A DNA stretch of 64,000 bases from a virus (IMGVR_UViG_2897328257_000003), one strand, 5' to 3'. Positions 48,823 through 63,074 are shown, numbered from the stretch's first letter. The notes: generated by a model not told the origin, from the letters alone. Numbers and translations: made by a program.

Positions 48823-49095
48823 ATGGCACATGACCGCATAGCGGAGGAACTCGAGGCAAAAGGCTTTTACCGGAGGGCGGCGGCGCGATGGGGTGAAGTC
48901 ATGCAACTGGTGGAGACAGACAAGGAACGGCATCAGGTTACGATGCGACGGCTGGAATGTTCCAGGAAGGCACAGAGGCCACCGGAGCCGCCGGATAACT
49001 TCGGAGACCTGAGAAAGGCAGTCGATCGCACTTATGCTGAAATGGGTATGGATGGTGTAAGCGATGAAATATGGCGTAATTACACAGACAGCTAA
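48823..49095 (+). CDS. PerC/Pch-family-like transcriptional regulator (putative)
   Basis: 90 aa from the ATG after SD gagggggtga; motif AEELEAKGFYRRAAARWGEVM resembles the conserved core of PerC-family activators. Recalled family signature, not searched. Confidence 0.5.
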   Translation: MAHDRIAEELEAKGFYRRAAARWGEVMQLVETDKERHQVTMRRLECSRKAQRPPEPPDNFGDLRKAVDRTYAEMGMDGVSDEIWRNYTDS

Positions 49096-49100
49096 TCAAC

Positions 49101-49125
49101 AGCCGGAGCAATCCGGCTTTTTGTT
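49101..49125 (+). terminator. Rho-independent terminator (agccggagcaatccggc + T-run)
   Basis: 6-bp GC-rich stem gccgga/tccggc, 4-nt loop, then TTTTT; the same hairpin recurs at 60418 and 62332. Confidence 0.6.
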
Positions 49126-49344
49126 ATTTTTTGTAAATTATTTGTTCGTGGTTGTTCCACGTTGTTCACTGAGCGGATCGGCATATTTTACCCGAACTGA
49201 ATCATGATTATTCTCGCCCGTGGTGCCAGGACGCTGGGGCCACTTTCCCGCCTGTTAATGTGCCCGCCAATATTCATTACCAGGCGGGAAAACGATCGGT
49301 GCGATTGCTGATTTCCTTATGAAAAACGGTTGAGTGTTTGCCGC

Positions 49345-49382
49345 GTCCTGGAGTTCCTTACTTAACCCCAGGACTTTTTTTT
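49345..49382 (+). terminator. Hairpin plus T8 tract abutting the capsid gene start (terminator/attenuator-like)
   Basis: gtcctgg-N15-ccaggac followed by tttttttt then ATG (49383); no SD for the capsid gene; half-site gttgagtgttt at 49329-49341 resembles the island control palindrome. Confidence 0.4.
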
Positions 49383-50540
49383 ATGCAGAGAATAATCGAA
49401 TTACGCCAGCAGAAAACCGCCATTAAAAATCAGATGCGTGACATGCTGGAGAACGCGGAAAAAGAAAACCGCAGTCTTAACGATGCTGAGGGCGCAAAAT
49501 TTGACGAATTACGCGCTAAAGCTGAATCCCTCGATAAAGACATTTCCCGCCTTGAAGCCATTGCAGACGAAGAGCGCAGCAAGCCAGCTAAAAGCAGTCA
49601 GACCACTGACCCCGCAGAACTACGCAACTACATTCTGACAGGTGAAACCCGCGCATTAAGTACAGGCGTTCCCGCTGATGGTGGTTATACCGTTATCCCC
49701 GAGCTGAACACCGAAATCATGCGAATGCTGGCGGATGAATCCACCATGCGCCGCATCTGTACCGTGAAGAAAATCAGCAGCAACGAGTTTAAGCAGCTTG
49801 TTTCCGCTGGCGGTGCGACCGTTAACCACGGTGAAGAGGCTAAGGCACGCGAACAGACCAGCACCCCGCAGATTAACGAGGTGAGCATTAAGCTGTATCC
49901 GGTCTATGCGTACCCGCGCACCACACAGGAAATCGTGGATTTTTCCGATGTGGACATCCTTTCATGGCTGACGGGCGAGATTGGCGACACCTTCACGGAA
50001 ACCGAAGAAAGCGATCTGGTTGTGGGCGACGGTGACAAAAAAGCAAAAGGTTTTTTATCCGTACCCCGTGCAGAGAAGAACGACAAAGAGCGTGATTTTG
50101 GTACGTTGCAGGTAATTAAACCTTCCGAATCTCTGGCGTGGACATCTGCGGACCCGCTGATCGACCTGAAATTTGCATTACGTAAAAAATACCGCAAAAA
50201 CGCGGTCTGGGTGGTTAACTCCACGACGGCGGCAAAACTTCAGAAGGTGAAGAACGCGAACGGTGATTACATCTGGCGCGACCGTTTACAGGCGGGTGAT
50301 CCTGATACGTTGCTGGGCCTTCCGGTCGAATATCTGGAGTTTATGCCTGATAACGTTATTGCCCTGGGTGACTTCAAACGCGGTTACTACATTGTTGATC
50401 ACGAAACAGGTGTTCGCACCAGACCGGACAACCTCACAGAGCCGGGTTTCATCAAAATTTTCACGCAGAAATATTTAGGCGGTGGCGTGGTGGATTCGAA
50501 CGCGATCAAGATTCTGGAACTGCCACAGGACGACGATTAA
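49383..50540 (+). CDS. Major capsid protein, HK97 family
   Basis: About 385 aa; N-terminal coiled-coil delta-like region (ELRQQKTAIKNQMRDMLENAEKE...LDKDISRLEA) followed by typical HK97-fold MCP body; start refined from the six-frame ORF at 49338. Confidence 0.88.
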   Translation: MQRIIELRQQKTAIKNQMRDMLENAEKENRSLNDAEGAKFDELRAKAESLDKDISRLEAIADEERSKPAKSSQTTDPAELRNYILTGETRALSTGVPADGGYTVIPELNTEIMRMLADESTMRRICTVKKISSNEFKQLVSAGGATVNHGEEAKAREQTSTPQINEVSIKLYPVYAYPRTTQEIVDFSDVDILSWLTGEIGDTFTETEESDLVVGDGDKKAKGFLSVPRAEKNDKERDFGTLQVIKPSESLAWTSADPLIDLKFALRKKYRKNAVWVVNSTTAAKLQKVKNANGDYIWRDRLQAGDPDTLLGLPVEYLEFMPDNVIALGDFKRGYYIVDHETGVRTRPDNLTEPGFIKIFTQKYLGGGVVDSNAIKILELPQDDD

Positions 50541-50594
50541 CAGCATACAGAAGGGGCTTAAAAGCCCCTTTAGTGTTTTATGGGTGAAAAATTT

Positions 50595-51152
50595 ATGAAG
50601 AGTATGGAAATCCGGTCATCGGAAATCACTACCAGCGGCAGCAACACGCTTACAGGCTACGTTGTTCGCTGGGATAAGCTTTCAGAACTGTTATGGGGTG
50701 AGTTTTACGAAAAATTCCAGCGGGGGGCGTTTACTGAATGGCTTGCGGCGGGTAATGACGTTCGCGGCCTGTATGAGCATGACCACAGTATGTTACTGGG
50801 GCGCACCCGTTCCGGCACGCTGAAACTGGAAGAGGATGAAACAGGGTTACGCTTTGAACTGACCCCACCGGATACCAGTACAGGGCGCGACGTTATCGAA
50901 CTGGTTAAACGTGGTGATATATCCGGCATGAGCTTTGGCTTTCGCTCCCGTAAGGATGTATGGGATACCACAACAGATCCATGCGTGCGCACCGTGCTGG
51001 TGGCGGAACTGTACGAAATTACCGTTACATCGGTACCGGCTTACCCCGATTCCGGCGTGGAGCTGGCCCGCCGTTCCCTGTATGAGCAGCACCCCGAAAA
51101 AATGCCGCGTGCGGATAATCGCCGCTGGTGGGTGGATTTAGCGGGGGTGTGA
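50595..51152 (+). CDS. Prohead maturation protease, HK97 family
   Basis: About 185 aa; pattern GYVVRWD...F.E.F..GAF......DVRGL.EHD...LLGRT.SGTL.LEED..GL.FEL.PPDT..GRDV.ELV.RGD.SGMSFGF matches prohead proteases. Confidence 0.85.
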   Translation: MKSMEIRSSEITTSGSNTLTGYVVRWDKLSELLWGEFYEKFQRGAFTEWLAAGNDVRGLYEHDHSMLLGRTRSGTLKLEEDETGLRFELTPPDTSTGRDVIELVKRGDISGMSFGFRSRKDVWDTTTDPCVRTVLVAELYEITVTSVPAYPDSGVELARRSLYEQHPEKMPRADNRRWWVDLAGV

Positions 51153-51153
51153 T

Positions 51154-52365
51154 ATGTGGCCTTTCAGAAGAAAAAAAGAGCAGCGCAGCATGACGCTTGA
51201 TGAATTTATGGCGCTGGCTGGCACATCGAACACGGGGGCGGGTGAGTACGTATCATCGGGGACAGCGGAATCACTGCCTGCCGTCATGAACGCCGTTACG
51301 GTCATCTCTGAGGCGGTGGCTACTATGCCATGCTACCTGTACCTGGTACGCAATGAGAAGGGGAAGGAGGCCCGCGAGTGGCTTGATTCTCATCCGGTCG
51401 ATCACATCCTCAACGAGCGCCCGAACGCATGGCAAACCCCCTACCAGTTTAAGCGAATGATGATCCGCCACTGCCTGTTAAACGGTAATGCTTATGCGGT
51501 TATTCAGTGGGGGCGTGATGGTTTTCCGGCGGCTTTACATCCTTACCCGCCGCAGTCGGTGAACGTGGAGCAGACAGGCGAACACAACTGGCGCTATTGC
51601 ATCACTGACGCCTACACCGGAAACACCCACAACTATTTACCGTGGGAAGTACTTCACCTTCGTTACTCCACGGATGACGGCTTTATGGGGCGCTCACCTG
51701 TAACCATCTGCCGCGAATCGCTGGGGCTTGGGCTGGCCCAACAACGCCACGGCGCGAGCGTGATGCGTGATGGCATGATGGCGGCAGGGGTTATCACGTC
51801 AGGCGAATGGCTGGACGGCGTGAAGGGCAAACAGGCATTAGCCGCACTGGAACGCTACAAAGGGGCCAGAAACGCCGGAAAAACGCCCATCCTTGAAGGG
51901 GGGATGAGCTATCAGCAGCTGGGCATGAGTAATCAGGATGCTGAATGGCTGGCCTCCCGTCGCTTTACCATTGAAGACATCGCCCGAATGTTCAACGTCT
52001 CGCCGATTTTTTTGCAGGAATACAGCAACAGCACCTACAGCAATTTCAGCGAGGCAAGCCGCGCATTTCTCACCATGACGATGCGCCCGTGGCTGGCGAA
52101 CTTTGAGCAGCAGATAAAAAACGCCCTGCTGGTGGCCTCGCCTGTACCTGGTATCCGGTATCAGGTGGAGTTTGACAGCGCGGACCTGTTACGGGCCACA
52201 CCTGGCGAACGCTTTGCCACCTATGAGCGCGGCATCAAATCCGGCGTTATGTGCCCGAACGAAGCCCGCGAACGTGAAGGACTGTCACCGCGTGATGGTG
52301 GTGATGAGTTCAGTCAGGCATGGAAACAGGAAGTAAAAATCAGCGAGGGAGAAAAACCGGAATGA
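51154..52365 (+). CDS. Portal protein, HK97 family
   Basis: 403 aa, SD gcgggggtg; size and sequence character of HK97-type portals; directly follows the protease. Confidence 0.88.
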   Translation: MWPFRRKKEQRSMTLDEFMALAGTSNTGAGEYVSSGTAESLPAVMNAVTVISEAVATMPCYLYLVRNEKGKEAREWLDSHPVDHILNERPNAWQTPYQFKRMMIRHCLLNGNAYAVIQWGRDGFPAALHPYPPQSVNVEQTGEHNWRYCITDAYTGNTHNYLPWEVLHLRYSTDDGFMGRSPVTICRESLGLGLAQQRHGASVMRDGMMAAGVITSGEWLDGVKGKQALAALERYKGARNAGKTPILEGGMSYQQLGMSNQDAEWLASRRFTIEDIARMFNVSPIFLQEYSNSTYSNFSEASRAFLTMTMRPWLANFEQQIKNALLVASPVPGIRYQVEFDSADLLRATPGERFATYERGIKSGVMCPNEAREREGLSPRDGGDEFSQAWKQEVKISEGEKPE

Positions 52366-52700
52366 ACATAGGGCGACTGCGTGACAGGATAACGATTCAG
52401 ACCCTGAAACAGACCAGAGCCATGACGGGCGAAATACTCGAAACGTGGGAGGACGGTCACACACTCTGGGCAAGCGTGAACATGATCAGCAGCAAGGAGG
52501 CCATTTCATCGGGCGCAGAGCTGGCGATTGGTACCGTAAGGATCTGGATACGGTACCGGAAGGACATCAACGCCACCAGCCGGATAAAGGTCAGTACGGG
52601 GCCGCTGGCGGGGCGTGTACTGAATATCATCGGGCAGCCGTTGCCGGATGTCGCCAGGACACGCCTTGAAATTCTTTGTCGTGAGGGCGCGGAAAAATGA
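52362..52700 (+). CDS. Head-tail adaptor / head closure protein
   Basis: 112 aa starting MNIGRLRDRITIQ (typical GRLR.R.TIQ head-tail joining motif); ATGA overlap with portal stop. Confidence 0.7.
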   Translation: MNIGRLRDRITIQTLKQTRAMTGEILETWEDGHTLWASVNMISSKEAISSGAELAIGTVRIWIRYRKDINATSRIKVSTGPLAGRVLNIIGQPLPDVARTRLEILCREGAEK

Positions 52701-52993
52701 CAGAAGAACTTATCACCCTGGAAGAAGTGAAACTCCATTGCCGTATCGATGGAGACGAGGAAGACCAGTTAATCAGCGGATACATTGCCGCATCGCTTGA
52801 GGCGTGCCAGATACACATAGGCAGGCGCTTTGATGACGGGCTGGAGTTCACGCCAGCCATAAAGATTGGCTGCATGATGTTTATCGCTCACCTGTATGAG
52901 AATCGCCAGATTGTCGCGGATAACGCAAAAACACGCGTACCCATGACGATTGGCGCACTCTGGACGGCTTACCGTGATGTGGGGGTGTACTGA
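52697..52993 (+). CDS. Head-tail connector protein (gp6-like)
   Basis: 98 aa, LEEVKLHCRIDGDEEDQLI... typical of gp6-like connectors; overlapping starts/stops with neighbours. Confidence 0.7.
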   Translation: MTEELITLEEVKLHCRIDGDEEDQLISGYIAASLEACQIHIGRRFDDGLEFTPAIKIGCMMFIAHLYENRQIVADNAKTRVPMTIGALWTAYRDVGVY

Positions 52994-53433
52994 TGCCGTG
53001 GCAACCATTAAGACGATGCACAGAACCAGGCTGTAACAGGCGCGTTAAATCCGGCAAGTGTGAGGAGCACAGGCGGGCGGCATGGCGTGCAGAGGATGCC
53101 AGACGAGGACACCGCCGCGCGCGTGGATATTCCAGACAGTGGGACAAATACCGCGCCATGTATCTGAGTAAAAACCCGTTATGCGTGCGATGCCTTGAGA
53201 AGGGGATATATACGCCCGCCGTGGTGGTGGATCACATTATCCCGATTAATGGCGGTGATGATGTTCTCTTCTGGCCCGAATGGAACCATCAACCATTGTG
53301 CCAGGCGTGTCATAACCAGAAAACGAAATGGCTTGATCCGGCAACAAAAAGCAAGCGTGCCGCAGGTGGATTTCGTGAAGAGGAAGAACGGGCCGCTAAC
53401 CGCAATAACTGGATGTATGACGCTGATGAATGA
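52993..53433 (+). CDS. HNH endonuclease (terminase-associated)
   Basis: 146 aa; Cys pairs and HNH core (VVDHIIPINGGDD...NHQPLCQACHNQKTKW); immediately upstream of TerS/TerL as in HNH-dependent cos packaging modules. Confidence 0.85.
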   Translation: MPWQPLRRCTEPGCNRRVKSGKCEEHRRAAWRAEDARRGHRRARGYSRQWDKYRAMYLSKNPLCVRCLEKGIYTPAVVVDHIIPINGGDDVLFWPEWNHQPLCQACHNQKTKWLDPATKSKRAAGGFREEEERAANRNNWMYDADE

Positions 53434-53722
53434 GCGGGAACAAAACCGCCTTATCCGTGGACTTATAAGGCAGCGTGACGCATGGAAGACACAGGAAACA
53501 GGGCATAAAGATAAAGCGTCAGGACGCGCAGAACGCATCACAGCGAAGCGATTAACCGACCGTGACCGCGAGGTTATGGAATGTTTCCGCAATCGCTGAT
53601 GAGGCTGTATGACGGGGTGGGGGGCGTTTTCAGGACAAACCCGACCCCGCCGGGCACCGAACGCCTCCTCAAATTTTTATGCACGGGAATTTTTTGAAAA
53701 ATAATCTGGCGAAAAAATAAGC

Positions 53723-54079
53723 ATGGCAAGACCACCGAAAGCCCCCGCCTACCTGGATGACATCGCCGTGAAGCAGTGGCGGGAAAAATCGCGGCAGCTT
53801 GCGGAACGGGGAGACCTGACCCCCGCCGACTGGAGCAATCTGGAACTGTATTGCGTCAACTACTCCATTTACCGGAAAGCCGTTGCAGACCTTGCGGCGC
53901 GCGGGTTCAGCATTGTTAACAGTCAGGGCGGCGAGAGCAGAAACCCCGCATTAAGCGCAAAATCCGACGCTGAAAGAGTGATGATAAAAATGGCCTCCTT
54001 GCTCGGTTTTGACCCGATAAGCCGCCGTAAAAATCCACCGGAAACAGAAGAAGAGGACGAGCTTGACCGCCTGGAATAA
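53723..54079 (+). CDS. Terminase small subunit, P27 family
   Basis: 118 aa; pattern ...W.E..RQL.ERGDLT.AD...LELYCVNYSIYRKA...L...G..........NPA........M.KMAS.LGFDP.SRRK matches P27-family TerS. Confidence 0.8.
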   Translation: MARPPKAPAYLDDIAVKQWREKSRQLAERGDLTPADWSNLELYCVNYSIYRKAVADLAARGFSIVNSQGGESRNPALSAKSDAERVMIKMASLLGFDPISRRKNPPETEEEDELDRLE

Positions 54080-55724
54080 GTACGCAGAAGACGTAAAAAC
54101 GGGCAAAATTCCGGCCTGTAAACGGCTGAAACAGGCCGTTAAACGGTACTTTTCGGACCTTGAAAGCCCCCTTTACACGTTCGATCGTGAGGTTGTGGAG
54201 CGGTTTATTGCCTTTTCCAGGGTGTGCCCGCACGTAAAAGGGCCGATGCGTGGCAGACCCATTGAGCTGGAGCCGTGGCAGCAGTTCGCCTTTGCGTGCA
54301 TCCTCGGCTTTAAGGTTAAGGCCACCGGACGGCGCAAATACACGAGCGCCTTTATCGAAGTGCCGCGCAAAAATGCGAAATCCACGACCGCCGCGATTCT
54401 GGCTAACTGGTTTCTGATTATGGAGAACGGGCAGCAGGATATTTACACCGCAGCGGTGAGCCGTGACCAGGCGCGGATCGTTTTTGATGATGCGCGTCAG
54501 ATGTGCCTTTTATCCCGACCGTTACGCAGGCGGGTGAATATTCAGGCCCACAAGGTGATGCACCCGAAAAGCAACAGCCTGTTAAAGCCGCTGGCAGCAA
54601 AAGCGGCAACCATCGAGGGCACAAACCCAAGCCTTTCCATCGTGGACGAATACCACCTACACCCCGATAACGGCGTTTATTCCGCGCTTGAGCTGGGGAT
54701 GGGCGCACGTCCCGAAGGGCTGTTATTTGCCATTACCACATCGGGCAGTAACGTCGTTTCAGCCTGTAAGCAGCACTATGATTATTGCTGCCAGATCCTG
54801 GACGGCGAAGAGGTCAACGATTCAATTTTTGTGCTGATTTACGAGCTGGACGACGAAAACGAGGTTGATGATCCGGCGATGTGGATAAAGGCTAACCCTA
54901 ACATCGATGTTTCCGTGGATCGTGAAAAACTGGCCTCAACCATCCAGAAAGCGCGGGGTATTCCGTCGCAATGGGTGGAGATGATGACAAAGCGATTTAA
55001 TATCTGGTGCCAGGGGGCTACCCCGTGGATGGGTAACGGCGCATGGGCTGAGTGTGCCGGAACGTTCACGGAGGAAGATTTACTCGGGCAGGAGTGTTAC
55101 GCGGGGCTGGACTTATCATCAACCAGCGATATTTCCAGCGTGTGCTATGCCTTTCCGGTCGGTAAAAATATCATGCTGGTTTCCCGTCATTATCTGCCGG
55201 AGTTCCAGCTACAGAACCCCGCCAATAAAAACCGCGCTGTCTATCGCCAGTGGGCTAAAGCGGGCTGGATACGCACAACGCCAGGTGACTGCATTGATTA
55301 CGACCGGATCAGAGATGACATCATGCAGGATGCGGAGAAATTTAATATCAGGCTGGTGGGCTTTGATACGTGGAACGCCACGCATCTCAGGACGCAATTA
55401 CAGGGGGCAGGCTTTGAGGTGGAGCCGTTCCCGCAAACCTACCTCAGATTCAGTCCGGCGGCGAAATCGTTCGAAGTTTTTGTTAACCGCAGGGTGATTG
55501 TGCATCGTGGCGATCCGGTGTTGTCCTGGTCGATGAGTAACGTCGTGATGCAGAGTGACGCGAACGCCAATATCAAGCCGAACAAGAAAAAATCACCGAA
55601 CAAGATAGACCCGAGCGTGGCGGCGCTGATGGCGTTTGGTACATTCCAGGCAGAGCATGAGGATTTTGCTTTTGATATAAGCGACAGCCACCGCCAGAAA
55701 CTGGAAGAATTTAGCGGGGTGTAA
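54063..55724 (+). CDS. Terminase large subunit
   Basis: 553 aa; ATPase region (FIEVPRKNAKSTTAA) and nuclease-domain character; overlaps TerS stop. Confidence 0.88.
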   Translation: MTAWNKYAEDVKTGKIPACKRLKQAVKRYFSDLESPLYTFDREVVERFIAFSRVCPHVKGPMRGRPIELEPWQQFAFACILGFKVKATGRRKYTSAFIEVPRKNAKSTTAAILANWFLIMENGQQDIYTAAVSRDQARIVFDDARQMCLLSRPLRRRVNIQAHKVMHPKSNSLLKPLAAKAATIEGTNPSLSIVDEYHLHPDNGVYSALELGMGARPEGLLFAITTSGSNVVSACKQHYDYCCQILDGEEVNDSIFVLIYELDDENEVDDPAMWIKANPNIDVSVDREKLASTIQKARGIPSQWVEMMTKRFNIWCQGATPWMGNGAWAECAGTFTEEDLLGQECYAGLDLSSTSDISSVCYAFPVGKNIMLVSRHYLPEFQLQNPANKNRAVYRQWAKAGWIRTTPGDCIDYDRIRDDIMQDAEKFNIRLVGFDTWNATHLRTQLQGAGFEVEPFPQTYLRFSPAAKSFEVFVNRRVIVHRGDPVLSWSMSNVVMQSDANANIKPNKKKSPNKIDPSVAALMAFGTFQAEHEDFAFDISDSHRQKLEEFSGV

Positions 55725-55737
55725 TGAGGTCAGCAGC

Positions 55738-56019
55738 ATGACAGAAGCCGAAATACTGCGATTAATCCGCCGCGTCTCTGGAATCAGCCAGCAGGCTGAC
55801 GAACAGACCACGCAGCCGGACAGCGTGACAGCCGAAAATTATGCGCGTGTTGTTGCTGAGGTGATGCGCCGTGATGGTATCCAGCTTAATGATGCGGATA
55901 TGCGCGACATACGGATCCGCGTTCTGGAAATGCTGGCCTACAATCGCCGCGTTGAACTGTATCGGGAGAAGGAGAAAATCACGTACCACTGGAAGAAGCC
56001 GGAGCGGTTACGGCGGTAA
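55738..56019 (+). CDS. Conserved hypothetical 93-aa protein at the right end of both islands
   Basis: Close homolog at 63330-63611 (MTEAE.LRLIRRV.GISQQ.DEQ.TQPDSVTAENYARVVAEVMRRDGI.LN..DMR.IR.RVLE.LAY.RRVE.YREKEKITYHWKKPERLRR). Confidence 0.6.
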   Translation: MTEAEILRLIRRVSGISQQADEQTTQPDSVTAENYARVVAEVMRRDGIQLNDADMRDIRIRVLEMLAYNRRVELYREKEKITYHWKKPERLRR

Positions 56020-56433
56020 CTTGTTGATTAAAAGGCGGCTCAATTCTGAGCTGGGTAGCTGACGGCGGTAACTGTTTTATATTCCCGATAGCGCAAAAAT
56101 GCGCGGTCGGGCAGAATGACCACCACCTCAATCGTGACGGAGAGTGACAACCAGTGACACACCGTGACAAAAAGACGGTTTAACCGTTCATTAAAAATCG
56201 ACGTGATTTTGTGCTATCAGGATGACGTGGCCAACGTCATTTTTTAGCGAAAAATTCTGATTAAGGTCACTGGCTGAATGGTCATAATGACCACGCAGAC
56301 CATCGAGGCAACCATAGCGATCATCGTTACGGTTGGAGCTTTTCCGCCATTGGTGGAAAAGGTGCACATCTGGATCATCATTACGGTGATCAAGGGTATG
56401 TAAAACCCACCAGCCTGATTAAATGTTAACCGG
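56020..56433. repeat. Island-1 right-end non-coding region with repeated motifs (cggcggtaact x2, GTGACA repeats, palindrome tggtcataatgacca); probable attR/arm-site region
   Basis: Motifs partly shared with the island-2 right end (63612-63820); contains a 38-codon hydrophobic ORF at 56287-56403. Confidence 0.4.
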
Positions 56434-56444
56434 NNNNNNNNNNN
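56434..56444. other. Assembly gap (11 N) between islands
   Basis: Run of n; sequence resumes at the same conserved motif that follows the 623-N gap in island 1. Confidence 0.99.
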
Positions 56445-56559
56445 TGATTATACTGGAATCCAGTTGAGTGTTTATCACTCAATGCAAACGAGGCTGAAAA
56501 GGATTGCCGTCCTTTCGCAGCCTCTGACCACCAACGATAGCGAAAGTATCGAGGTAGCT
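56445..56559 (+). promoter_or_regulatory. Conserved control region (copy 2) with palindrome TTGAGTG-N5-CACTCAA (56464-56482)
   Basis: Near-identical to 44836-44952. Confidence 0.5.
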
Positions 56560-56763
56560 ATGAGAAATCATATCACACACCCGCAAGGGCGGGACTCGCA
56601 CAACCTGAATAAATTCACCTGGCGTTTTATCGCCCTGAGCACGGCACAACCGCGCGTGATTACCATTGAGGCCACCAGCGAACAGGAAGCACGCCTGCAA
56701 TCCCCGGCTGGCTGCGTGATGGTATTCGCTGCCCGTATTCGTCAGGGGGGGTGCCATGCCTGA
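56560..56763 (+). CDS. Hypothetical small protein (homolog of 44953-45153)
   Basis: Same SD and start context; N-terminus conserved, C-terminus divergent. Confidence 0.5.
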   Translation: MRNHITHPQGRDSHNLNKFTWRFIALSTAQPRVITIEATSEQEARLQSPAGCVMVFAARIRQGGCHA

Positions 56764-57076
56764 CATGACCAATTACCAGTACCTGATTAATCCGCATTTT
56801 AACTGTGAGCATGATATTGCTAAAAAGGTTTATTCCGCTGCGGATGGGGCTACTGACAATATATCAATGGCTGTTTCGTCAATTGGTAGCCTGATGTGGT
56901 ATGCGTCAGAAAATGAGGAATATGACGAAAAGGCCATGCGCATTGACATGGGGAATATTGGCTTGTTACTGGCAATGCTTGGGCAGTTTGATATTTCGTT
57001 ACGGTGCACCATTGAAAATGCCACAGATGCATTAAATGCCATAAAGAAAGCGAATACTGATTCAAATCGGGGATAA
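56756..57076 (+). CDS. Hypothetical protein (106 aa), island-2-specific variable-slot gene
   Basis: Six-frame ORF in the same slot as island-1 ORFs 45146-45754 but unrelated in sequence. Confidence 0.45.
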   Translation: MPDMTNYQYLINPHFNCEHDIAKKVYSAADGATDNISMAVSSIGSLMWYASENEEYDEKAMRIDMGNIGLLLAMLGQFDISLRCTIENATDALNAIKKANTDSNRG

Positions 57077-57082
57077 ATAATC

Positions 57083-57382
57083 ATGAGAACATATTTATCT
57101 GGCTTGACTGCCAGCGGTTATGCACACCCCAAAATTATCCCCGGCGCTATTTATCTGGATAAGAACGGTAACAGAGTAACGGTAAAAGAACTGATGTTTG
57201 ACCGTGTGTATTTTATCCGTGATGGCTATTCATTTCTTAGTTCGCTGAACGTGGAGATCTTTATTAGCAGATTCAGGCGGGAAATCCCGCTTTCCAGAAA
57301 TAACCATGTGTCATGTATGGATGTTGATAAAAAACTACAGGAACTAAAAAACATGATTGCCGCGTGGAGAGAGCAGAAATGA
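57083..57382 (+). CDS. Hypothetical protein with GLTASG motif (99 aa)
   Basis: Counterpart of 45760-46059; stop overlaps primase start. Confidence 0.5.
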   Translation: MRTYLSGLTASGYAHPKIIPGAIYLDKNGNRVTVKELMFDRVYFIRDGYSFLSSLNVEIFISRFRREIPLSRNNHVSCMDVDKKLQELKNMIAAWREQK

Positions 57383-59196
57383 AAAAAGCGCCAAATTTAA
57401 AACACCAGCCACGTGACAAAATGATGGAAGTCATCATTTTTGCGGGTAGTGATGCGTGGGCACATGCGAAGCAATGGCAGGAACAGGACGGGCGACTGGC
57501 TGGCGACAGCGTGCCTCCTGTCTGGCTTGGAGAGCAACAACTTGCCGAACTGGACAACCTGCAAATCGTACCGGACGGACGCTATCGCGTGCGTCTCTAT
57601 CAGGCGGGGTTATTGCGTCCGGGGCTTGTTAATACCATCGGGCAGAAACTGGCAGCGGCAGGTGTCAGGGATGCTGATTATTACCCTGAAGGAATGCACA
57701 GCCAGAAACGGGAGAACTGGCGCGAATATCTGGAACGTGAACGGGCAGAGCAGGCGGAAAAGAAAAAGGTAGTTGAACTGCCTGTAAAGAAAAAAGAGCG
57801 GGTAAAAGACGATAACGCTTCATCACTGGCGCTTAACCAGATGGGAGCAAGTCAACGCGGCGAAGTTCTCCTGGCACATTATGGCGGTGAACTGGCGATT
57901 CATGCTGACTCTGACACTGTTCACTATTACAACGGCGTTGTATGGGAGCCAGTACAGGATAAAGAATTACAGCGAGCTATGGCACAGATTTTCATTGATG
58001 CGGAGATCAGCTATTCGCAGAACGCCATTAAATCGGCGGTCGATACCATGAAGTTAAGTTTGCCTGTAATGGGGAATACAGCCCGTAACCTGATTGGATT
58101 CAGTAACGGTGTTTTTGATACCCGGACAGGCGATTTTCGGGAGCATAACAAAAACGACTGGTTGTTAATTGCCAGTGAATTACCTTTCAGCCCACCAGCA
58201 GAGGGGGAAACGCTGGCAACACATGCGCCGAATTTCTGGAAGTGGTTACGCCGTTCGGTGGCTGAGAATGACCGCAAGGCGGATCGCGTACTGGCTGCAT
58301 TATTCATGGTGCTGGCGAACCGGTACGACTGGCAGTTATTCATTGAGGTAACAGGTCCAGGGGGAAGTGGTAAAAGCGTGATGGCGGAGATTTGCACCAT
58401 GCTGGCGGGTAAGGCCAACACGGTATCGGCAAGCATGAAGGCGCTGGAAGATGCCAGGGAACGCGCGTTAGTGGTTGGCTTTTCGCTGATTATCATGCCG
58501 GATATGACCCGTTACGCTGGTGATGGCGCAGGAATTAAGGCCATTACAGGCGGTGACAAGGTGGCAATCGACCCGAAGCATAAAGCCCCCTACTCAACAC
58601 GCATTCAGGCGGTAGTGTTGGCGGTGAACAATAACGCCATGTCATTCAGTGACCGCAGCGGGGGGATTTCACGTCGTCGGGTGATATTCAATTTTTCGGA
58701 GGTTGTACCGGAAAACGAACGCGACCCCATGCTGGCAGAAAAAATAGAAGGAGAGCTGGCGGTTGTGATTCGCCACCTGCTTACTCGTTTTTCTGACCAG
58801 GACGAAGCTAAACGCCTGCTGTATGAGCAGCAGAAATCAGAAGAAGCTCTGGTGATAAAACGCGAGGGCGATTCGCTGGTGGACTTCTGCGGCTATCTCA
58901 TGTCGTCGGTAATGTGTGATGGTCTGTTAGTGGGTAATGCCGAAATTATTCCGTTCAGTCCGCGCAGGTATCTTTATCACGCCTATCTGGCATATATGAG
59001 GGCACACGGATTCGGTAAACCTGTAACACTGACGCGCTTCGGTAAAGATATGCCGGGGGCAATGGCGGAATATGGCAGGGAGTATATGAAACGGAAAACG
59101 AAGCACGGTTTGCGTTCAAATGTGACCCTGACAGAGGATTCAGAAGACTGGATGCCATCATGTGCATCGGTCACAAATGACGATGGAAAAAATTAA
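57379..59196 (+). CDS. P4-family phage/plasmid primase / replication initiator (island-2 allele)
   Basis: About 605 aa; Walker A FIEVTGPGGSGKSV; N-terminus and C-terminal domain related to island-1 primase, middle divergent; start refined to MKKAPNLK; six-frame ORF starts at 57364. Confidence 0.85.
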   Translation: MKKAPNLKHQPRDKMMEVIIFAGSDAWAHAKQWQEQDGRLAGDSVPPVWLGEQQLAELDNLQIVPDGRYRVRLYQAGLLRPGLVNTIGQKLAAAGVRDADYYPEGMHSQKRENWREYLERERAEQAEKKKVVELPVKKKERVKDDNASSLALNQMGASQRGEVLLAHYGGELAIHADSDTVHYYNGVVWEPVQDKELQRAMAQIFIDAEISYSQNAIKSAVDTMKLSLPVMGNTARNLIGFSNGVFDTRTGDFREHNKNDWLLIASELPFSPPAEGETLATHAPNFWKWLRRSVAENDRKADRVLAALFMVLANRYDWQLFIEVTGPGGSGKSVMAEICTMLAGKANTVSASMKALEDARERALVVGFSLIIMPDMTRYAGDGAGIKAITGGDKVAIDPKHKAPYSTRIQAVVLAVNNNAMSFSDRSGGISRRRVIFNFSEVVPENERDPMLAEKIEGELAVVIRHLLTRFSDQDEAKRLLYEQQKSEEALVIKREGDSLVDFCGYLMSSVMCDGLLVGNAEIIPFSPRRYLYHAYLAYMRAHGFGKPVTLTRFGKDMPGAMAEYGREYMKRKTKHGLRSNVTLTEDSEDWMPSCASVTNDDGKN

Positions 59197-59460
59197 ACTT
59201 ATGGAATAACTGTTCACCACTGTTCAGCCTGCAATAAATGTCTTTTATATCAGTATATTATAGGGTGAACAGTTATTTATGAACTGTTCACCAAACTATT
59301 CACTGTTCACCTTTTTGATTCTTTATTGAGCTTTAAGGGTGAACAGTGGTGAACAGTTGGTGAATAGTTTTTGTGAAACTGTTCACCCCTTAACATCATG
59401 AATAAAAAGGGAAAATTGCAAAAGGTGAACAGGTGAAGGGTTGAAATGCAAAAATTTTAT
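59197..59460. repeat. Iteron array, putative island-2 replication origin (GTGAACAG-type)
   Basis: At least 10 copies of TGTTCACC/GGTGAACAG in both orientations (aactgttcaccactgttcag, gggtgaacagtt, gaactgttcaccaaactattcactgttcacc, gggtgaacagtggtgaacagttggtgaatag, ggtgaacaggtgaagg) right after the primase gene. Confidence 0.65.
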
Positions 59461-59483
59461 TTTATTGCTGTGAGGTAAAGCCT

Positions 59484-59729
59484 GTGACAACGAAGCACGC
59501 CAAAAAACCACAATCTCACGCCCTTGATTTGACAGAACACTGGCTGAGGGTGGCGATAAAAATCATCGACCGCAACGCCGGGGAAGGATACGCGAAGGAA
59601 CATCCCGACCTGATAAGCGCATTCATGACCACAGCAGCGGCAAACTTTGCCACGCTGACAGAACGGGAGATTGCCGAAGCGGAACAGGTAACAACCATCA
59701 ACGTTAAAACCGGAGAGGGGGCAGTATGA
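59484..59729 (+). CDS. Hypothetical protein conserved in both islands (homolog of 48091-48405)
   Basis: GTG start with SD gaggt; C-terminal region near-identical to island-1 copy. Confidence 0.55.
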   Translation: MTTKHAKKPQSHALDLTEHWLRVAIKIIDRNAGEGYAKEHPDLISAFMTTAAANFATLTEREIAEAEQVTTINVKTGEGAV

Positions 59730-60136
59730 CGGCACAGATAGCCGCTTACGGGCGGCTGGTGGACGACCCGCAGGTAAAACAGACCAGCAAGGGCACACCA
59801 ATGACGCTGGCTCGTATGGCGGTATCGCTGCCATGCAGCCAGGCACAGGACGGACAGGCGACGTTATGGCTGTCGGTCATCGCATTTGGCAAACAGTCCG
59901 ACTTCCTGGCTAAACATCAAAAAGGCGACGTTGCCAGCGTATCCGGCACGATGCAGGTAAGCCAGTGGACCGGACAGAACGGGGAGACGCGTCAGGGTTA
60001 TCAGGTTATTGCAGACAGCGTAATCAGTGCCCGTGCGGCACGTCCTGGCGGGAACAGACGCAAAACCACAGGCGCACAGGGTAATCAGCCACCAGCGGGA
60101 GACGATGATCCCTACGGTGATGATATTCCGTTCTGA
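59726..60136 (+). CDS. ssb: Single-stranded DNA-binding protein (SSB-like, C-terminal DDIPF)
   Basis: Near-identical to island-1 SSB; ends ...AGDDDPYGDDIPF. Confidence 0.75.
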   Translation: MTAQIAAYGRLVDDPQVKQTSKGTPMTLARMAVSLPCSQAQDGQATLWLSVIAFGKQSDFLAKHQKGDVASVSGTMQVSQWTGQNGETRQGYQVIADSVISARAARPGGNRRKTTGAQGNQPPAGDDDPYGDDIPF

Positions 60137-60146
60137 GGGGGTGACG

Positions 60147-60395
60147 ATGGTACATGACCGCATAGCGGAAGAACTCGAAGCGAAAGGATTTTACCGGAGG
60201 GCGGCGGCGCGATGGGGTGAAGTCATGATGCTGGTGGAGACAGACAAGGAACGGCATCACATCACGATGCGACGGCTGGAATGTTCCAGGAAGGCACAGA
60301 GGCCACCGGAGCCGCCAACGGAGAACTATGCAGACCTGAGAAATGCAGTAAATCGCACTTACGCAGACATGGGGCTGAGCAAATTAGCAGAGTAG
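60147..60395 (+). CDS. PerC/Pch-family-like transcriptional regulator (putative)
   Basis: 82 aa; AEELEAKGFYRRAAARWGEVM core shared with island-1 copy. Confidence 0.5.
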   Translation: MVHDRIAEELEAKGFYRRAAARWGEVMMLVETDKERHHITMRRLECSRKAQRPPEPPTENYADLRNAVNRTYADMGLSKLAE

Positions 60396-60416
60396 GAATA
60401 CCAGAACCACACCACA

Positions 60417-60490
60417 CAGCCGGAGCAATCCGGCTTTTTTGCGCCCAAAAAAAGCCCGATAAGGTCAGAGGTGGCTTATCGGGCTTTTGC
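60417..60490 (+). terminator. Tandem rho-independent terminators
   Basis: agccggagcaatccggc + T6, then aagcccgataag-N11-cttatcgggctt + TTTT (12-bp stem). Confidence 0.65.
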
Positions 60491-60649
60491 ATATGAGGCT
60501 TTTTGGTGCACTGACACACATGATCGGGATAATCATTTCATAATTTGCAACACAACTCAATATCATTGCACAAAATGCAATCATGATTATAATCATAACT
60601 GGATGAACATACAGTTGTGGTTTTTTAAGTCAAAGAGGAATTTCTTACT

Positions 60650-60856
60650 ATGGCTGAAGAGAAAAAAGGCGGTGTTTCGGTGTACATAAGCCCCGACATC
60701 GTGAAGGCGCTCAAGGAACGCCACCAGCAGAACGTAAAAGCAGGCATTGCGGCAGGACTTGATCCGCTGGCGATGGTTGAGCCGTCAACAGGCTGGCAGG
60801 TACGCGCCTATTTACGCGCGGCGCTGGGTATGAATCAGGTTCACGGGGGTGAATAA
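60650..60856 (+). CDS. Hypothetical 68-aa protein upstream of the gpE-like capsid gene
   Basis: SD aaagagg; stop overlaps the capsid gene start; no recognisable family. Confidence 0.45.
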   Translation: MAEEKKGGVSVYISPDIVKALKERHQQNVKAGIAAGLDPLAMVEPSTGWQVRAYLRAALGMNQVHGGE

Positions 60857-61911
60857 TGACAGGTAAAGCAACAGCACTTACCACTAATCAGCTTTTCACG
60901 TACCTGAATCGCGGGGATATTGCGGAATTTAAATTCAGTCCGCTGTTTACGACGCTGTTTTTCCCGAACGTGGCGACATTCAGCACCCAAAACATCATGC
61001 TGGATACCCTGGACATTGAAGAAGTCACCATGTCGGCGTTTTGTTCGCCTATGGTTGGCAGCCAGGTACAGCGCGATAAAGGGTACGAAACCAGCACAAT
61101 TAAACCTGGCTACATGAAGCCAAAGCACGAAATCGATCCAACGAAAACCATCATGCGCATGGCTGGAGAAGATCCAGCACAGCTTAACGACCCTACCTAC
61201 CGACGTATGCGCCTGATTACTGGCAACATGCGCCGCCAGGTAAACGCCATTAAAGCGCGCGTGGAATGGCTGGCGGTGAATGCGATAACGACCGGAAAAA
61301 ACATTATTGAGGGCGAAGGCATAGAACGCTATGAAATAGACTGGAAAATACCGGAAAACTGCATCATAGAGCAGGCCAAGGGTAAAAAATGGTCCGAGCA
61401 GGATAAAGAGATGCACGACCCAATCTATGACATCGAGCTTTATGCTGATCAGGCTGGTTGCCCCGCAAACGTCATGATTATGGGCGCTGAGGTATGGCGC
61501 ACGCTACGCAGCTTTAAAAAATTCCGTGAGCTGTACGATCTTTCCCGTGGTTCAGAATCCGCCGCAGAACTGGCCTGTAAAAACCTGGGCGAAGTGGTGA
61601 GCTTTAAAGGCTATCTGGGCGATATTGCCCTTATCGTCTATTCCGGCAAATACGCTGACAGCGACGGCACCGAAAAATATTTCCTTGAGCCTGATTTACT
61701 GGTCCTGGGTAACACCAACAATAAAGGCCTGGTGGCCTATGGTGCGATTATGGATCAGGAAGCGGTAAGAACGGGCGCAACGCAAAACATGTACTACCCG
61801 AAAAACTGGATTGAGGACGGCGATCCGGCGATTGAGTACGTGCAGACACACAGCGCACCGCAGCCGGTACCGGCAGATATTCGCAAATTTGTTACCGTCA
61901 AAATTGGTTAA
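60856..61911 (+). CDS. Major capsid protein, lambda gpE-like
   Basis: 351 aa; colinear similarity to lambda gpE as remembered (island KFSPLFTTLFF / PGYMKPKHEI / YPKNWIEDGDPA versus lambda KFDPLFLRLFF / PGYVKPKHEV / YPKNWVTTGDPA). Confidence 0.85.
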   Translation: MTGKATALTTNQLFTYLNRGDIAEFKFSPLFTTLFFPNVATFSTQNIMLDTLDIEEVTMSAFCSPMVGSQVQRDKGYETSTIKPGYMKPKHEIDPTKTIMRMAGEDPAQLNDPTYRRMRLITGNMRRQVNAIKARVEWLAVNAITTGKNIIEGEGIERYEIDWKIPENCIIEQAKGKKWSEQDKEMHDPIYDIELYADQAGCPANVMIMGAEVWRTLRSFKKFRELYDLSRGSESAAELACKNLGEVVSFKGYLGDIALIVYSGKYADSDGTEKYFLEPDLLVLGNTNNKGLVAYGAIMDQEAVRTGATQNMYYPKNWIEDGDPAIEYVQTHSAPQPVPADIRKFVTVKIG

Positions 61912-61922
61912 CGGGGGATTCT

Positions 61923-62258
61923 ATGGACACTCCATACATTGAGTTATTCGCAGGCAGTCAGCAGGTCGCCACGACGCTGGTACATTTTGCCGCTGATGCT
62001 GGCGTTATTCAGGAATTTACCCCGCTGATGCTGGCGGACAATGGCGAGTTTAAGCCGTGGGATGGTCAGGAATCTGGCAAGGCTGTTTATCTGACTTCGT
62101 ACCCCGTGGACACGTCGACGCAGAAATCAGCACAGTGTTACAAGACGGGGATATTTAATATCGCTGCCGTAAACTGGCCTGAGAGCGCCGACACTGACGC
62201 GAAAAAATGCGCTGCCTTTGCGGGGTCTGGCGTATCCGTTCAGCCGCTGGCGCGATAA
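61923..62258 (+). CDS. Head decoration protein, lambda gpD-like
   Basis: 111 aa; similar to lambda gpD as remembered (island FTPLMLADNGEFKPWDG...YKTGIFN...NWPESADTDAKKCAAFAGSGVSV versus lambda MTPLMLDTSSRKLVAWDG...YKSGTFR...[24 protein letters not shown]). Confidence 0.8.
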   Translation: MDTPYIELFAGSQQVATTLVHFAADAGVIQEFTPLMLADNGEFKPWDGQESGKAVYLTSYPVDTSTQKSAQCYKTGIFNIAAVNWPESADTDAKKCAAFAGSGVSVQPLAR

Positions 62259-62330
62259 GCAGGGGGAACGATGGCAGAACCCCGGGCGATGACGGCGACA
62301 TCGATCGCATACTGAAAACCATCTGAGACA

Positions 62331-62355
62331 GGCCGGAGAAATCCGGCTTTTTTTA
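62331..62355 (+). terminator. Rho-independent terminator (ggccggagaaatccggc + T7) just before cos
   Basis: Third copy of the gccgga/tccggc hairpin, followed by ttttttt. Confidence 0.6.
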
Positions 62356-62356
62356 C

Positions 62357-62430
62357 GGGTCCTTTCCGGCATATGGACCCGTTACGGGGCGGCGACCTCG
62401 CGGATTTTCGCTATTTATGAGCCTTTTCGG
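62357..62430 (+). promoter_or_regulatory. Lambda-type cos site 1 (cosQ-cosN conserved; predicted 12-nt cohesive end GGGCGGCGACCT at 62387-62398; divergent cosB)
   Basis: acgggtcctttccgg...gttacg|gggcggcgacctcgcggattttcgctatttatga matches the lambda right-end/left-end junction as remembered; downstream cosB region differs from lambda. Confidence 0.75.
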
Positions 62431-62531
62431 GTTTGTGGTGGTGGTTTTGTTGTTCGCTCTATCTCTATGAATAAAAAGGGAAAGATAAAACCAACACACC
62501 AACCTGAAACCTTAACTAAGTGGGTATATTG

Positions 62532-63074
62532 ATGAAATCGCACCTGATGAACAAAAAAAACATGGCGAAAAGCTGCCGTGTAAGTGCGACAGCGTTCGAC
62601 AAGTGGGGAGTGACACCCGTTGAACGTAAAGGCCGTGAGGCGTTTTATGATGTTGCCAGCGTGATAGACAATAGGGTTAACAATGCAATTAGCCAGCTTA
62701 CAAACGACAAAGTCGAGATTGATGATGATGAACTCTTACGAGTCAGGATCAGATTACTGACAGCACAGGCGGAGGCGCAGGAACTTAAAAACGAGCGCGA
62801 TCGCGGTGACGTGATTGATACAGAGTTTTGCATGTACGCGCTTTCAAAACTGGCAAGTCAGATTTCTTCAATCATGGACAGCCTCCCGCTTACTATGCAA
62901 AGGAACTTCCCACAGATGCCCCCCGCTATGCTGCATGGGCTTAAGAGGGAAGTAGTTAAAGCCTGTAATGCCAGTGCCAGAGTTGCCGACAACCTCCCAC
63001 AGATACTTGCTGATTACCTGAACGAAACAACCGGAAACGTACCGGAAAAGTTGCTACAGAAGAAAGGCGAGTAA
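62532..63074 (+). CDS. Terminase small subunit, lambda Nu1-like (divergent N-terminal DNA-binding region, conserved C-terminal region)
   Basis: About 180 aa; C-terminal half resembles lambda Nu1 (LTAQAEAQELKNERDRGDVIDTEFCMYALSKLASQISSIMDSLPLTMQRNFPQ); N-terminal HTH region divergent; lies directly downstream of cos1 as in lambda. Start could be 62520, 62532 or 62547. Confidence 0.78.
   Translation: MKSHLMNKKNMAKSCRVSATAFDKWGVTPVERKGREAFYDVASVIDNRVNNAISQLTNDKVEIDDDELLRVRIRLLTAQAEAQELKNERDRGDVIDTEFCMYALSKLASQISSIMDSLPLTMQRNFPQMPPAMLHGLKREVVKACNASARVADNLPQILADYLNETTGNVPEKLLQKKGE

Follow-up and report, generated by a model that had tools for sequence, protein, structure and literature searches.

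A repeated hairpin, probably a Rho-independent terminator, marks module junctions in phage-inducible chromosomal islands of Escherichia coli

Introduction

Why should one short hairpin recur three times, almost unchanged, at the ends of gene blocks in two different islands? The question is raised by the viral sequence IMGVR_UViG_2897328257_000003, a stretch of 64,000 nucleotides (nt) that we refer to as the window, in which three near-identical GC-rich stem-loops, each followed by a T-run, lie between positions 49101 and 62354. Judged by sequence, the window represents two Escherichia coli phage-inducible chromosomal islands (PICIs), one a capsid-forming PICI (cf-PICI) and the other a cos PICI of the EcCICFT073 type; E. 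coli chromosomal islands match its DNA at 93-97% identity. A sequence-only reading had proposed that the hairpins sit at module boundaries, punctuate transcription and promote recombination.

We report here that the hairpin is probably a Rho-independent transcription terminator, found in E. coli only in PICI satellites, with one copy closing each co-oriented unit. Its part as a module-junction marker and terminator is well supported, and a causal role as a recombination hotspot is plausible.

Results and discussion

Three copies of one hairpin in the window

Site 1 (49101-49122, + strand), AGCCGGA-GCAA-TCCGGCT followed by five T, is located 6 nt after the stop codon of the cf-PICI perC gene. 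Site 2 (60418-60440, +) carries the same 24-mer, ACAGCCGGAGCAATCCGGCTTTTT, with a run of six T, 23 nt after the perC stop codon of the EcCICFT073-type island. Site 3 (62330-62354, +), (A)GGCCGGA-GAAA-TCCGGC followed by seven T, stands at the end of the capsid/decoration module. Sites 1 and 2 are identical over a 24/24 block, with a flanking ACA and the details of the T-run also conserved between them; site 3 has a GAAA loop instead of GCAA and one extra stem pair. A search of the window with the 21-mer GCCGGAGMAATCCGGCTTTTT, allowing up to two mismatches, returned the three sites and no others; they are all on the + strand, within 1-2 nt of the positions first given for them. The same search found no match in 100 dinucleotide-preserving shuffles of the window, so that no copy is expected there by chance. 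All three sites gave a predicted stem-loop upon folding (-13.5 to -16.4 kcal/mol for whole 46-nt segments, z about -3.3), with stems of 7-8 bp containing five GC pairs, a 4-nt GNRA loop and 5, 6 or 7 T right after the stem. They were all within the top four terminator-like sites in a scan of the + strand.

Site 1 lies between the perC-family gene of the cf-PICI (48823-49095, +; PF06069, E 7e-44), the last gene of the replication/regulatory block, and the HK97-type major capsid gene (49338-50540, +), the first of the packaging module, whose start is 216 nt downstream. Site 2 follows the perC-family gene of the cos PICI (60147-60395, +) and is succeeded by a second, different hairpin, a small open reading frame (ORF) and a capsid gene. 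Sites 1 and 2 thereby precede two unrelated capsid modules, both after perC. The block shared by the two islands, 92% identical overall and including the 5' part of perC, stops at 49046/60373; the last ~20 nt of the cos-PICI perC (from 60374) and its 3' flank could not be aligned to the cf-PICI. Beyond this point come 52 and 42 unalignable nt, the isolated 24/24 hairpin match and then unrelated DNA until the right ends of the islands, which places sites 1 and 2 at the right edge of the homologous block.

The context of site 3 is unrelated to that of the other two. It is found 72 nt past the decoration gene, directly after an 18-codon ORF remnant (62259-62330) that in relatives is an ORF of 137 amino acids (locus L001, 9551-9964; EcCICFT073, locus L435, 32084-32497) and has been lost here by a ~350-nt deletion; the EcCICFT073 ORF is likely c1501, by position. 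The idea that every hairpin divides a replication/regulatory block from a packaging block or cos was correct for sites 1 and 2, which have perC on one side and a capsid module on the other, and slightly off for site 3, where the capsid/decoration module comes before the hairpin and cos after it.

The second, much stronger hairpin after site 2 (60447-60488, +) begins 6 nt beyond it and consists of A7, an 11-bp stem and T4 (region -40.8 kcal/mol, z -4.6). As part of the lambda-E-type capsid module, it moves with that module in related islands. Together with site 2 it makes up tandem predicted terminators, of which the second looks bidirectional.

The hairpin follows perC in every evaluable locus

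To avoid circularity, related loci were also sampled by the PerC protein and not by the hairpin. All 79 evaluable perC loci carried the hairpin 6-23 nt past the stop codon, 62 of them exactly and 17 with one mismatch each. The loop was GAAA in about 39 loci, GCAA in 30 and GUAA in 10, with no other loop present. Only the N of GNRA varies freely, a pattern expected from selection on RNA structure.

perC itself is present in some islands and absent from others, with the boundary at the hairpin. We rejected the hairpin as a part of perC alone, as it also follows ssb, the decoration-module ORF, a gene of 74 amino acids and other small ORFs. Several lambdoid prophage contigs (L251, L260, L263 and others) encode a distant PerC homologue (42% identity) ~550 nt upstream of a phage-type cos. 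In phages as in PICIs, PerC-family genes are thus placed right ahead of the packaging region, which hints at a possible role in the control of late or packaging genes.

In E. coli the hairpin is an accessory element of PICIs

The hairpin was present in 1250 of 5426 complete E. coli genomes (23%) at 2828 places, with a median of 2 and a maximum of 10 per genome; among the 50,697 phage records searched, no Escherichia phage had it. Four low-ranking genome matches, picked since only the core of the hairpin matched, were all PICIs with the hairpin after ssb. The next module was a third kind of capsid module, a ClpP-protease/capsid fusion, in three of them and a lambda-E-type capsid in the fourth, and one of the four had a RepA helicase in place of the primase. 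EcCICFT073 carries both hairpins, one after perC in the same flanks as site 2, the other directly against cosQ. All the E. coli places examined were PICIs, and the hairpin is accessory in this species. In IMG/VR, a scan with the 21-mer located 158 occurrences, spread over 120 contigs; 137 of these occurrences adjoin homologues of the PICI genes in the window, and 32 contigs have two or three copies.

Repetitive extragenic palindromic (REP) sequences are core-genome elements of E. coli, with hundreds of copies per genome. The hairpin resembles REPs and bacterial interspersed mosaic elements (BIMEs) in being a short GC-rich palindrome repeated in intergenic DNA. Unlike them, it is missing from 77% of genomes, has a median copy number of two, bears a T-run and is confined to PICIs. 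A REP/BIME-like generic palindrome was therefore rejected, the maximum being ten places in a genome and all sampled places being PICIs. Within E. coli, the association with module boundaries, as opposed to a generic genome-wide element, held up; the exact 21-mer is still common in unrelated phyla. A one-genome-per-species scan, in which counts are lower bounds, detected it in more than 120 contigs of Bacteroidota, Bacillota and Pseudomonadota, far above the few matches predicted by a uniform-probability estimate, and no enterobacterial locus was among the matches listed. The phage-record search also found it in phages of Enterococcus, Erwinia and Vibrio. The combination of GC stem, GNRA loop and T-run is a recurring convergent solution, and the sequence alone carries no meaning.

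The abundance of the exact word in unrelated phyla and phages speaks for mere coincidence among generic terminators, that is, for GCCGGA-GNRA-TCCGGC-Tn being a common optimal word at which the three copies arrived independently. We consider this very improbable for the window: its shuffles contained no match, more than three quarters of E. coli genomes lack the hairpin and all sampled occurrences are in PICIs, the 79 perC loci carry it without exception, 32 contigs have two or three copies within an island of roughly 10 kb, and sites 1 and 2 share the flanking ACA and T-run details. For E. coli, coincidence is largely refuted, and the hairpin appears to have spread by cassette exchange or duplication, not by repeated convergence. 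In the Enterococcus phages phiFL1A and phiFL2A, a hairpin-like match of 25/26 nt is located within or at the annotated ArpU-family late-activator gene; it is a convergent parallel to the arrangement of perC, hairpin and packaging genes.

The anatomy of the hairpin fits a Rho-independent terminator

The hairpin combines the hallmarks of Rho-independent terminators, namely a GC-rich stem of at least 5 bp, a loop of 3-8 nt, a stable fold, an adjacent U-tract and a co-oriented gene end upstream. The T-run is 5-9 nt long across related loci. In copies linked to ssb, the distance to the ssb match is 19 nt, and in the four complete genomes the hairpin starts 16-22 nt past the annotated ssb stop codon. 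The earlier suggestion that the hairpin punctuates transcription agrees with this anatomy (canonical form, 6-23 nt past a stop codon, co-oriented with the genes), from which we infer that transcription would terminate there in vivo.

With the hairpin as a terminator, each co-oriented transcription unit of the island would end in one near-identical copy. One copy stands after the last replication/regulatory gene, which is perC or, where perC is absent, ssb. Another follows the optional cassette with the 74-amino-acid accessory gene, and another the capsid/decoration module, where the U-tract doubles as the T-rich left flank of cosQ. Termination at these points would set the early block apart from the packaging module as well as from cos and the Nu1-like gene. 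As all cassettes end in the same 22-28 bp, the hairpin is the sole sequence common to otherwise unrelated module combinations, and mosaic junctions between PICIs map to it.

Several observations weigh against termination by the hairpin. A promoter scan of the + strand found no sigma-70-like promoter between site 1 and the capsid gene, nor between site 3 and the Nu1-like gene, so that with a fully efficient terminator neither gene would have an obvious transcript. Their expression must then depend on read-through, on a promoter that needs an activator or on antitermination of some kind. Late transcription of phage lambda normally crosses cos, which leaves no evident necessity for a terminator in front of it. 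The nearly invariant stem varies too little to give covariation support, its few variants being single uncompensated mismatches. Two divergent islands, whose decoration gene is 52% identical, have no hairpin upstream of cos. A literature search on PICIs found no mention of any terminator, nor of RNA 3' ends at the U-tract.

AlpA as a processive antiterminator that reads through the repeated hairpins was rejected. The alpA gene (43684-43872, +), with which the rightward gene array of the cf-PICI begins, encodes a protein of 62 amino acids that matches PF05930 only, with no Protein Data Bank match to the P. aeruginosa AlpA; the latter antiterminator is longer than 140 residues and folds in a Q21-like manner, and the two are unrelated.

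The hairpin abuts one PICI cos and is absent from phage cos

The seven T of site 3 pass straight into cosQ of a lambda-type cos (62355-62430, +), whose cosQ is ACGGGTCCTTTCCGG (at 62355) and whose cosN has the lambda cohesive-end sequence GGGCGGCGACCT (62387-62398). A second, inverted lambda-type cos (63221-63300, -) has no hairpin in front. The two flank a small-terminase-like, Nu1-like gene (62520-63074, +; PF07471), which may be an Rpp-type gene, considering its position and the published fold similarity of RppC and lambda TerS, and the hairpin precedes only the + one. EcCICFT073 has the same cos pair (L435, 32558 + and 33293 -), which corresponds, as a pair, to the published cos1/cos2; both EcCICFT073 cos sites are reported to be functional (PMC6092414).

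Further sampling by lambda-type cosN covered phage and PICI loci. Phage-type lambda cos have TAATTATTATCATTTT in front of cosQ in place of the hairpin, which was absent from 86 clear phage-context loci and from all 107 newly fetched ones (0/107). PICI cos on the + strand have the hairpin and the inverted PICI cos do not. Inheritance of the hairpin from the cos region of a helper phage was rejected, given TAATTATTATCATTTT at phage cos and no Escherichia phage record with the hairpin.

The abutment of cosQ raises the alternative that the inverted repeat works as DNA, as a cosQ-proximal subsite that extends the PICI cos and to which terminase, Rpp or a host factor would bind; the island cos would then be favoured over the phage cos, or the termination of packaging controlled. 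This would explain why the T-run abuts cosQ-like sequence in at least three cos types (ACGGGTCCTTTCC of the lambda type, GTAGGTACTCC and ATGGGTCCTCC) regardless of the upstream gene (decoration, ssb, perC, primase or small ORF), why the island in L130 (reverse complement, 6970-9500) has two different cos sites each directly after a hairpin, and why phage cos lack it. We nevertheless regard a packaging element as improbable. Some copies are far from any cos, such as those between perC and the HK97-type capsid gene in cf-PICIs or between perC and the 74-amino-acid gene, and the second PICI cos has no hairpin, although both cos sites of EcCICFT073 are reported to function. The loop varies while preserving GNRA, which points to selection at the RNA level and not to a DNA-binding site, and the hairpin is strictly co-oriented with transcription. 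A cos subsite present at every functional cos and only there was likewise rejected, since phage cos and the second PICI cos are without the hairpin and junctions without cos have it. The two cos types of the L130 island are in the same orientation, one after ssb and the other after the capsid/decoration module, and may allow the use of two helper types.

Unrelated modules meet at the hairpin

We classified the 30 nt on each side of the hairpin in 169 distinct contexts. At least eight upstream and at least seven downstream flank classes meet in about 20 combinations; one upstream class joins up to five downstream classes, and one downstream class up to five upstream classes. A single perC allele precedes, depending on the island, the cassette with the 74-amino-acid gene, the E-type capsid module, the HK97 module or a type-2 cos. 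Conservation across these contexts is confined to the hairpin and the T-run. The loop letter follows neither flank strictly, and the length of the T-run follows the downstream module.

The 74-amino-acid gene (MPMKFDEILKQRDKYH...) is placed between two hairpin copies 354-363 nt apart, for instance at 3715-4098 of L123 (reverse complement) and 6419-6793 of L161. It is seen in classical PICIs and cf-PICIs alike, is missing from the window and gave no confident Pfam match.

Tracts of recent identity (at least 97% identical, at least 400 nt) were then compared among 95 non-redundant PICI loci, yielding 584 internal ends. Of these ends, 14.9% were within 10 nt of a hairpin, compared with 1.0% at random positions (~15-fold). 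At least one tract end fell in 52% of intergenic gaps with the hairpin versus 16% of other gaps within 3 kb (odds ratio 5.5, with a p-value that is only nominal), and in the hairpin-containing gaps 87 of 123 ends were within 10 nt of the hairpin itself. The events behind these figures are not independent of each other, and ascertainment of the loci was in part via the hairpin. Shared tracts on the upstream side and on the downstream side both include the hairpin. The claim that the hairpin marks module boundaries in related islands is borne out by the roughly 20 flank combinations and by the concentration of recent tract ends.

Such a distribution invites the explanation that the shared 22-28 bp are a crossover site for co-resident or co-infecting PICIs, besides or instead of a terminator, with cassettes flanked by two copies; helper-phage Red/Rad52-type recombinases or RecA would be the catalysts. 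We find this possible but doubtful. The hairpin is the zone in which tracts from both sides overlap, with most ends in its gaps falling next to it. Cassettes bounded by two copies do exist, the 74-amino-acid gene being one and the E/D capsid module enclosed by sites 2 and 3 another, and the presence or absence of perC is bounded there as well. The loop letter is tied to neither flank and the T-run length to the downstream module, and the source genome probably had two islands bearing the hairpin. On the other hand, the identity block of 22-28 bp is at or below the Red-beta minimum, quoted as roughly 30 bp (PMC3945230), the tract ends do not count as separate events, and homology in the window pair already ends about 50 nt upstream of the hairpin. 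Random joining with survival only at operon ends, the terminator being kept by selection, would give the same pattern, and selection for viable junctions is a long-standing alternative to the conserved-boundary model (PMC3233612). The tract pattern fits the conserved-boundary model and operon-end selection equally well. The hotspot of the sequence-only reading is a possible cause of this pattern, next to operon-end selection.

A broader proposal makes the hairpin a satellite-owned 'linker' in the sense of modular theory. Homologous recombination within the 22-28 bp would let PICIs swap replication blocks, accessory cassettes and cos types along with capsid/packaging modules of at least three kinds, probably through a helper recombinase while two islands replicate in one cell. 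cf-PICIs and EcCICFT073-type PICIs would be interconvertible by a single crossover, and the abutment of cosQ would make inserted cassettes packageable. We hold this proposal to be unlikely.

Comparison with known elements

In kind, the hairpin looks like an ordinary Rho-independent terminator; what is new is its arrangement, which is undescribed in the literature searched. It resembles enterobacterial intrinsic terminators, including those with GNRA/UUCG tetraloops, in its 7-8 bp GC stem, GNRA loop, 5-9 U, proximity to a stop codon and single orientation. Ordinary intrinsic terminators differ from it in being gene-specific, whereas the hairpin is reused two or three times per island, after at least five unrelated genes and before at least seven unrelated modules.

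The morons of lambdoid phages are said, in work ascribed to Juhala, Hendrix and colleagues in 2000, to be autonomous insertions of promoter, gene and terminator. The 74-amino-acid cassette, and arguably the E/D capsid module, are like them inserted units with their own terminator between two operon genes. Unlike in a moron, the terminator of the cassette is identical to the one that the cassette sits behind, so that two identical hairpins bound it, and no promoter has been demonstrated.

The boundary or linker sequences of lambdoid phages (PMC3233612) are similarly short, conserved and intergenic, with interchangeable non-homologous modules on both sides and piled-up tract ends. The hairpin differs in belonging to satellites and not to helper phages, with no Escherichia phage record containing it, and in having an obvious function of its own as a predicted terminator, so that its conservation need not mean a role in recombination.

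The prototype E. coli PICI EcCICFT073 has the same gene order as the second island, two cos sites and both hairpins at the same places, and the first island shows the gene order of cf-PICIs, of which EcCIEDL933 is the prototype. Publications on EcCICFT073 and EcCIEDL933 describe cos sites, Rpp and capsid genes (PMC6092414, PMC6739421, bioRxiv 10.1101/2022.09.08.507074), with no mention of the hairpin or of a terminator. New relative to the literature searched are a single conserved sequence, a predicted terminator, that recurs as punctuation in E. coli PICIs with several types of packaging, the lineages of both experimental prototypes among them, its abutment of cosQ and the mapping of module exchange onto it.

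If confirmed, the hairpin would add an early-block stop to the PICI transcription map and explain the separate activation that the packaging genes and the Rpp/TerS-like gene require. It would serve as a sequence landmark for dividing islands into modules and locating cos, and would offer a case for testing conserved linkers against random joining plus selection as the source of mosaic junctions. For engineered PICIs, it would provide a natural insertion point bounded by predicted terminators. It reveals no new kind of molecular machine and is of moderate interest to specialists in satellites and phage evolution.

Organization of the two islands

Real DNA in the window covers 36270-64000 only; the remainder (1-36269), over half of the window, is N. 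The real part is further interrupted by two 11-N spacers (43242-43252 and 56434-44) and a 623-N mask (44213-44835). The first spacer is flanked by a 136-nt exact duplicate (43106-43241 = 43253-43388), and the start of the third piece falls inside a 98-99% repeat of 44838-45023. The spacers, the duplicate and this repeat suggest separate contigs; the spacers probably join contigs of one draft genome set end to end, so that the adjacency of the two islands in the genome is not shown.

Piece 2 (to 56433) has the gene order of a cf-PICI, with integrase (41912-43162), alpA, primase, ssb and perC followed by the packaging genes, in the order HK97-type capsid, protease, portal, connectors, HNH, TerS and TerL. 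Piece 3 (56445 onward) follows the order of the prototype EcCICFT073, comprising primase, ssb, perC, small ORF, lambda-E-like capsid, lambda-D-like decoration, lambda-type cos, Nu1-like gene and the second inverted cos. Its capsid module between sites 2 and 3 (60650-62258, +) contains the small ORF (60650-60856, +), the lambda-E-like capsid gene (60856-61911, +), corresponding to EcCICFT073 c1499, and the lambda-D-like decoration gene (61923-62258, +), corresponding to c1500. An Rfam scan of the whole window gave no family at gathering score, and a tRNA scan of it gave none.

Two kinds of repeat unrelated to the hairpin were observed. Between the primase gene and the ORF that follows it, a 29-nt palindromic motif, GGTGAACAGTT...AACTGTTCACC, occurs twice with a spacing of 95 nt (59264-59292 and 59359-59387), and the pair is a candidate for replication-origin or operator repeats. 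Direct repeats of 29-66 nt (GGCGGTAACT..., CTGGCTGAATGATCAT...), common to both islands, lie near their right ends, at 63604-63669 and 63737-63802 and also at 55997-56080 and 56307-56389, and may be attachment or regulatory repeats.

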